Under the pieces are notes generated by a model. It did no database searches, was not told the origin of the DNA, and saw only the letters and a program-made list of their open reading frames with translations. Shown in pieces: positions 45,730 to 46,692 of a DNA stretch of 64,000 bases. The position numbers and the translations under genes are program-made. Numbering within the stretch: position 1 is the stretch's first letter; every line of letters begins with the position of its first letter. Source of the stretch: Escherichia coli (GTDB lineage Bacteria > Pseudomonadota > Gammaproteobacteria > Enterobacterales > Enterobacteriaceae); NCBI RefSeq assembly GCF_044647545.1, contig NZ_CP172818.1; one strand, written 5' to 3'.

Positions 45730-45752
45730 AATAAGGATGTTGTAACTAAAGT
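45730..45752 (+). other. Replication terminator site TerB overlapping tus promoter
   Basis: AATAAGGATGTTGTAACTAAAGT contains Ter core GTTGTAACTA; 11 nt upstream of tus start. Confidence 0.8.
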
Positions 45753-45762
45753 GGTTAATATT

Positions 45763-46692
45763 ATGGCGCGTTACGATCTCGTAGACCGACTCAACACTAC
45801 TTTTCGCCAGATGGAACAAGAGCTGGCTGCATTTGCCGCTCATCTTGAGCAACACAAGCTATTGGTTGCCCGCGTGTTCTCTTTGCCGGAGGTAAAAAAA
45901 GAGGATGAGCATAATCCGCTTAATCGTATTGAGGTAAAACAACATCTCGGCAACGACGCGCAGTCGCTGGCGTTGCGTCATTTCCGCCATTTATTTATTC
46001 AACAACAGTCCGAAAATCGCAGCAGCAAGGCCGCTGTCCGTCTGCCTGGCGTGTTGTGTTACCAGGTCGATAACCTTTCGCAAGCAGCGTTGGTCAGTCA
46101 TATTCAGCACATCAATAAACTCAAGACCACGTTCGAGCATATCGTCACGGTTGAATCAGAACTCCCCACCGCGGCACGTTTTGAATGGGTGCATCGTCAT
46201 TTGCCGGGGCTGATCACCCTTAATGCTTACCGCACGCTCACCGTTCTGCACGACCCCGCCACTTTACGCTTTGGTTGGGCTAATAAACATATCATTAAGA
46301 ATTTGCATCGTGATGAAGTCCTGGCACAGCTGGAAAAAAGCCTGAAATCACCACGCAGTGTCGCACCGTGGACGCGCGAGGAGTGGCAAAGAAAACTGGA
46401 GCGAGAGTATCAGGATATCGCTGCCCTGCCACAGAACGCGAAGTTAAAAATCAAACGTCCGGTGAAGGTGCAGCCGATTGCCCGCGTCTGGTACAAAGGA
46501 GATCAAAAACAAGTGCAACACGCCTGCCCTACACCGCTGATTGCACTGATTAATCGGGATAATGGTGCGGGCGTGCCAGACGTTGGTGAGTTGTTAAATT
46601 ACGATGCCGACAATGTGCAGCACCGTTATAAACCACAGGCGCAGCCGCTTCGTTTGATCATTCCACGGCTGCACCTGTATGTTGCAGATTAA
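45763..46692 (+). CDS. tus: Replication terminus-binding protein Tus
   Basis: 309 aa from [11 protein letters not shown]. Confidence 0.95.

Follow-up and report, generated by a model that had tools for sequence, protein, structure and literature searches.

[quoted passage not shown] Ter sites of this class span 23 bp, and within them the core consists of G at position 6 together with positions 8-18 reading A(T/A)GTTGTAACT (PMC8347550). Goodall et al. assigned positions 6 and 8-18 to the conserved core and positions 1-5, 7 and 19-23 to the variable part, and according to the literature Tus makes no base-specific contact at position 7 (PMC8347550). The role of C(6) in formation of the Tus lock has been described (PMC4499146; PMC8707476), and Pandey et al. 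identified the side of positions 1-6 as the non-permissive end of the site and positions 22-23 as the permissive end (PMC4499146). Tus also autoregulates its own expression via TerB, which lies in the tus promoter (PMC8707476; PMC8347550; PMC10331603, citing Roecklein et al. 1991). As a fork barrier, TerB of E. coli is regarded as a secondary, back-up site located outside TerC (PMC10331603; PMC8707476).

We analyzed a stretch of 64,000 nucleotides of E. coli DNA (contig NZ_CP172818.1 of assembly GCF_044647545.1), hereafter called the window. Positions 45730-45752 of the window are, with high confidence, the chromosomal TerB, which is expected to combine the roles of fork barrier and tus operator through a single Tus-DNA complex. 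In the present analysis, the assignment was based on the identity and uniqueness of the sequence, its intact core, a complete Tus gene, genomic context, orientation, allele frequency and cross-species conservation. The strain thus carries an intact Tus/TerB pair, and the site serves as a landmark that places the window in the terminus region of E. coli, beyond TerC and dif.

Sequence and identity of the TerB site

The features of the locus are as follows.

44386-45687, + strand: rstB, encoding a sensor kinase, upstream of the Ter site and ending 42 nt before it (domains HAMP, HisKA and HATPase_c, and annotation)
45730-45752, + strand: TerB, the replication terminator bound by Tus (23 bp), AATAAGGATGTTGTAACTAAAGT; Ter positions 1 and 23 correspond to 45730 and 45752
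45735, base pair: G.C(6), whose - strand C is flipped into the cytosine pocket of Tus in lock formation
45736, base pair: position 7, G here and T in K-12, a common natural allele (K-12 alignment and 35-mer counts)
45753-45762, + strand: spacer GGTTAATATT, 10 nt, from Ter to the tus start, read from the sequence
45763-46692, + strand: tus, DNA replication terminus site-binding protein, 309 aa plus stop (Pfam, identity to K-12, PDB and the RefSeq annotation of an identical locus)

A preliminary description of this DNA had reported a TerB site containing the string GTTGTAACTA within 45730-45765, located 11 nt upstream of the tus start codon. The string is present on the + strand at 45730-45752, and the range originally given comprises the Ter site, the spacer and the ATG. 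The gap between the site and tus is 10 nt, or 11 when counting includes the step to the A of the start codon, and Toft et al. likewise mentioned a "10 bp region" (PMC8707476).

Alignment to the K-12 locus showed that the site is identical to K-12 TerB at 22 of 23 positions, the sole difference being T7G at 45736. When the window was searched for the K-12 TerB 23-mer with up to three mismatches, 45730-45752 was the only match, with one mismatch, and none of 100 dinucleotide-preserving shuffles of the window contained any match at the same threshold. The core pattern GNNNGTTGTAACNA had a single exact match in the window, which was again the TerB site. The site carries G6 and reads ATGTTGTAACT at positions 8-18, with no core mismatch, and since the + strand base at 45735 is G, the C(6) needed for the lock is present on the - strand. 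A mismatch at the invariant core positions, which the preliminary description had named as the observation that would speak against the site, was looked for at positions 6 and 8-18, and all of these are canonical.

The site was also compared with the sequences that we take to be those of TerA to TerJ. It differs from TerB by one mismatch, from TerA by two and from each of the others by at least five; at positions 6 and 8-18 it shows no mismatch to what we take to be TerA to TerE and TerG. Only the TerB member of this set was confirmed, by PMC4499146 and the K-12 genome. A text search of the literature did not find the TerC 23-mer in the form used here, and the TerA string does occur in three papers. 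The location between rstB and tus, the distance of about 10 nt to the tus ATG, the intact core and the closest sequence all agree with the name TerB that had been given to the site.

A chance or pseudo-Ter match without function would be in line with two observations. The 8-mer GTTGTAAC occurs by chance, with two further copies of it in the window lying inside open reading frames (ORFs), and relaxed versions of the core pattern GNNNGTTGTAACNA are found 52 times against 50.5 expected, which is chance frequency. However, a 22/23 match never arose in the shuffles, the site is exactly orthologous to K-12 TerB, and positions 5, 6 and 8-19 are invariant at the corresponding site in 80 species. These results have already refuted a chance origin, and the probability left to it is negligible.

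The two further copies of GTTGTAAC, both on the - strand, occur at chance frequency and were rejected as Ter sites, as neither has the Ter consensus. The copy at 21340-21318 carries A6 and C18 and lies inside a long + strand ORF (19573-21999). The copy at 57881-57859 carries C9, C18 and T19 and lies inside another long + strand ORF (56316-58112).

Outside this locus, an exact 19-nt match, TGTTGTAACTAAAGTGGTT, was observed at 51-66 plasmid places (e.g., NZ_JBUBJY010000001.1 and NZ_CP027311.1). It corresponds to Ter positions 9-23 plus four flanking bases. Presumably, they represent plasmid-borne Ter sites like those of R1/R6K; it is curious that the identity continues beyond position 23 into the flank of TerB.

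The tus gene and its neighborhood

The downstream gene, named as tus in the preliminary description, encodes a protein that matches the whole Pfam profile PF05472 (Ter) over residues 9-306 (E=4.1e-137). It is identical to K-12 Tus at 308 of 309 residues, with the single change I23A, and it matches the structures 1ECR, 2EWJ, 2I05 and 2I06 in the PDB from end to end, its length being equal to that of the crystallized protein. The start codon is the ATG at 45763-45765, as in the RefSeq annotation and the crystallized protein of 309 aa. An alternative GTG start at 45751, which falls inside Ter positions 22-23 and would give 313 aa in the list of ORFs, was rejected as a mechanical artefact, since RefSeq and the crystal structures use the ATG. 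With a spacer of 10 nt, the ribosome-binding region of tus (Shine-Dalgarno) must overlap or abut the 3' end of the Ter site.

Upstream of TerB lie the response regulator gene rstA and the kinase gene rstB, and downstream, on the opposite strand, lies the class II fumarase gene fumC. The gene order rstA-rstB-TerB-tus/fumC-fumA-manA is the same in K-12 and in E. coli FDAARGOS_497. The latter, a strain very similar to the present one, aligns to positions 25640-64000 of the window with no mismatches and six small gaps, and its order is pntAB, ydgH, ydgI, folM, ydgC, rstA, rstB, tus, fumC, fumA (labelled fumB), manA and ydgA. A 221-bp probe spanning the rstB-tus junction found matches in 5,423 of 5,426 complete E. 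coli genomes, annotated rstB|tus.

Three side observations concern this neighborhood and the rest of the window. First, the rstB-tus probe matches E. coli strain 2017.02.03CC (NZ_AP027748.1) only up to query base 159 (about position 45798 of the window), the match is split into two places, and the annotation beneath it is rstB only; tus in this strain may be disrupted after about 12 codons, an insertion being one conceivable cause. Second, at about 52909-53243 of the window, FDAARGOS_497 has only short annotated pseudogene fragments between ydgA and uidR. K-12 is taken here to carry uidC-uidB-uidA in the same interval, and the beta-glucuronidase operon appears to have been deleted in this lineage. 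Third, positions 1-4000 have a G+C content of 42.5% and a GC skew of -0.12, compared with 46-53% G+C in the rest of the window, and this left edge may represent horizontally acquired or prophage-remnant DNA.

Polarity of the fork barrier

The direction in which TerB would arrest replication is set by its orientation, as the preliminary description had stated. Position 1 of the site lies at the lower window coordinate, and the non-permissive face therefore points towards lower coordinates. It follows that forks moving from left to right (from rstB towards tus) would be blocked and that those moving from right to left would pass. Mechanistically, Tus is expected to bind the 23-bp TerB asymmetrically. 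A replisome arriving from the position-1 side would unwind the DNA up to G.C(6), and the freed C(6) of the - strand (45735) would enter the cytosine pocket of Tus and form the lock, while a fork arriving from the position-23 side would displace Tus. Binding of Tus, formation of the lock and repression are drawn from inference and the literature, as are the exact positions of the promoter and of the transcription start.

The window is collinear with K-12, as the probe match and tus are both on the + strand. On the K-12 map, terA, terC and terB are located at 1.34, 1.61 and 1.68 Mb, respectively (PMC10331603). In the K-12 DHB4 record, the oriC gap between mnmG and mioC lies at 3.83 Mb and TerB at 1.59 Mb. 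Taken together, the map and the position of oriC indicate that the clockwise fork, which travels towards increasing coordinates, meets the non-permissive face of TerB. The blocked fork would accordingly be the clockwise fork of the K-12 map, and the passing fork would be the counter-clockwise one, the usual replicator of this region. The non-permissive face is directed towards the inner termination zone (dif and TerC), which is the orientation of a fork trap.

The GC skew of the + strand is negative in 14 of 16 4-kb bins of the window, as expected if the right-to-left (counter-clockwise) fork normally copies the region, and this places the window just beyond the skew switch. Searches of the window for dif, and for TerC by means of the core pattern, found neither. 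The earlier placement of the window at the replication terminus thus stands as far as the terminus region is concerned and does not extend to the dif and TerC sites, which are not inside it.

Promoter region and autoregulation of tus

Two promoter-like elements were recognized upstream of tus.

45702-45707, + strand: possible -35-like hexamer TGGTCA, four of six matches to TTGACA, 17 bp upstream of TATAAA; a weak match, proposed by inference
45722-45730, + strand: extended -10-like element TGCTATAAA (TG, one base, TATAAA), from sequence reading and a pattern search; its last base is Ter position 1

Judging from the sequence, both TGCTATAAA and the TGGTCA hexamer are putative promoter elements of tus. 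Among E. coli haplotypes the GGTCA of the -35-like hexamer is largely kept, and TGTGCTATA is invariant in the six haplotypes compared. The latter is also common to Escherichia, Citrobacter, Salmonella, some Enterobacter, Lelliottia and Huaxiibacter. A strict sigma-70 consensus scan of 45300-46900 found no promoter; it missed TGCTATAAA because its rule demands T at hexamer position 6. A literature search for tus transcription-start data found nothing relevant.

A different arrangement was observed in Klebsiella, Raoultella, Kluyvera, Pluralibacter and Pseudocitrobacter, in which a TATAGT/TATGCT box lies about 10 bp further upstream and is accompanied by a TTGCGC/TTGCAC -35-like box. The position of Ter seems to have stayed constant while the promoter shifted between genera. 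Either promoter geometry puts the expected transcription start at or inside the Ter site, so that bound Tus would occlude initiation, and the way in which TGCTATAAA abuts TerB fits repression by promoter occlusion. The site extends from the last base of the -10-like box to 10 nt before the tus ATG. Tus bound to TerB would cover the expected start region and prevent initiation by RNA polymerase, resulting in negative feedback on the level of Tus. Autoregulation of tus at a Ter site, as proposed in the preliminary description, is the published view (PMC8707476; PMC8347550).

No convincing terminator was found between rstB and tus, and the only terminator-like match (45620-45632) is located within rstB and is no better than chance. 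Read-through from rstAB is thus possible. Mohanty, Sahoo and Bastia reportedly showed in 1996 that an RNA polymerase meeting the non-permissive face is also blocked by the Tus-Ter complex, and a block of this kind would cover transcription reading through from rstAB.

Conservation of the tus-vicinal Ter site across species

A scan of species-representative genomes with the Tus protein yielded 80 tus loci, with Tus identities from 99% down to 69%, from Escherichia, Citrobacter, Salmonella, Enterobacter, Klebsiella, Raoultella, Kosakonia, Kluyvera, Lelliottia and others. In all 80 loci, GTTGTAAC is found within the 150 nt preceding the gene, on the same strand as tus. The distance from Ter position 23 to the start codon is 6-10 nt in 75 of the 80 loci, 18 nt in four and 27 nt in one. 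Positions 5, 6 and 8-19 are the same in every site, which defines positions 5-6 and 8-19 as the conserved block of the tus-vicinal Ter in these 80 species, whereas positions 1-4 and 20-23 vary freely. In the intergenic columns upstream of the site, the commonest base is found in at most 58 of 80 loci. The invariance of Ter set against these variable columns provides strong, independent evidence that the arrangement of Ter at tus is under selection, in agreement with Toft et al. 2021 (PMC8707476).

Position 7 is T in 74 of the 80 loci, G in four (three Escherichia lineages and one Pluralibacter MAG) and C in two. It varies far less than positions 1-4 and 20-23, despite the lack of base-specific contact in the literature. 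Given T in so many species, position 7 may not be entirely free of constraint.

The conservation data also bear on the relative weight of the two roles of the site. It is conceivable, although unlikely, that TerB acts mainly as a transcriptional operator for tus and that its barrier is rarely or never used, with TerC catching clockwise forks first. TerB is not the innermost site, and a Ter located right at the tus start in every one of the 80 species examined is what an operator requires. However, wild-type cells are reported to show substantial fork pausing at TerB, at a level that ranks with the highest after that at TerC (PMC10331603; also PMC8707476). The G.C(6) pair, which alters duplex affinity less than fourfold (PMC4499146) and matters for the lock, is nevertheless invariant in 80 of 80 loci, and the orientation of the site is always trap-forming. 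Furthermore, the tus-vicinal Ter of type I traps is itself the innermost barrier (PMC10331603; PMC8707476). As the roles of operator and barrier are not exclusive, the reading in which one Tus-DNA complex serves both is preferred.

The polymorphism at position 7

The preliminary description had suspected that G at position 7 departs from the canonical TerB. Alignment to K-12 demonstrated that the difference is real, and the allele counts argue that it is harmless. To count the alleles, 35-mers were matched exactly against 5,423 complete E. coli genomes.

G7, the haplotype of the window: 843 genomes
G7 with a change 2 bp outside the 23-mer: 568 genomes
G7 with A2T (includes O157:H7 strains): 1,302 genomes
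T7, as in K-12: 2,344 genomes
Other alleles: about 366 genomes, by subtraction

G7 is therefore carried in three haplotypes by at least 2,713 of the 5,423 genomes (at least 50%). Example sequences confirmed these haplotypes and revealed another, less frequent allele in which one nucleotide is inserted within the outer positions 1-5. Sequencing error or a private mutation was ruled out as a source of G7 by the 2,713 exact matches over three haplotypes, and a base present in at least half of the genomes is not a lesion. Furthermore, TerC, TerG and TerI natively carry G7 in the sequences that we take to be theirs. At a position that Tus does not read, T7G is probably a neutral or near-neutral polymorphism, and no functional difference would be expected from it.

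An effect of T7G on TerB was nevertheless considered. The substitution could weaken or alter the site, by lowering Tus affinity or weakening the lock, and thereby change the set-point of tus expression. The presence of T in 74 of 80 species is a hint of constraint, and a G.C(7) pair beside G.C(6) should make the last unwinding steps slightly harder. However, the same base is found in at least half of complete E. coli genomes on three separate haplotypes, and TerC and TerG, which have G7 in the sequences assumed here, belong to the six sites of high affinity that Tus occupies in vivo (PMC8707476). Such an effect is improbable. T7/G7 splits E. coli roughly in half, adjoins the lock base C6 and falls inside the expected transcription start region. 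The two alleles could in principle shift lock-formation kinetics or the autoregulatory set-point of Tus between lineages, and we give this little credence; if true, a functional T7/G7 difference would explain why T prevails in 74 of 80 species although Tus reportedly does not read position 7.

Neutral variation at TerB is the preferred reading of T7G. Two practical points emerge from the counts. First, the "canonical" TerB of K-12 is not the majority allele, as complete E. coli genomes carry G7 at least as often. Second, searches and primers based on the K-12 23-mer should allow for variation at position 7 and at position 2, the latter being T in about a quarter of the genomes.

Comparison with known systems

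Compared to TerB and the autoregulated tus gene of K-12, the locus described here shares the rstB-tus location, the strand, the 10-nt spacing to the ATG, G6 and core positions 8-19, and its extended -10-like element TGTGCTATAAA is identical. It differs in having G7, the I23A change in Tus and four further SNPs in the 75-bp intergenic region; in the 141-bp alignment to K-12, these four non-Ter differences all lie upstream of the -10 box.

Compared to TerC and TerG, in the sequences that we take to be theirs, the TerB site of the window has the same G7 and is identical over core positions 5-20. The differences are confined to the outer positions 1-4 and 21-23 and to location, as TerC and TerG lie elsewhere on the chromosome, away from the tus promoter. 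Both of these sites are of high affinity, form the lock and are occupied by Tus in vivo (PMC8707476).

Compared to Ter1 of the type I fork traps of other Enterobacterales, the site likewise lies immediately upstream of tus on the same strand and contains G6 and the core (PMC8707476). In type I traps, however, the vicinal Ter is the innermost site, whereas the type II trap of E. coli has TerC further in and retains TerB as a back-up (PMC8707476).
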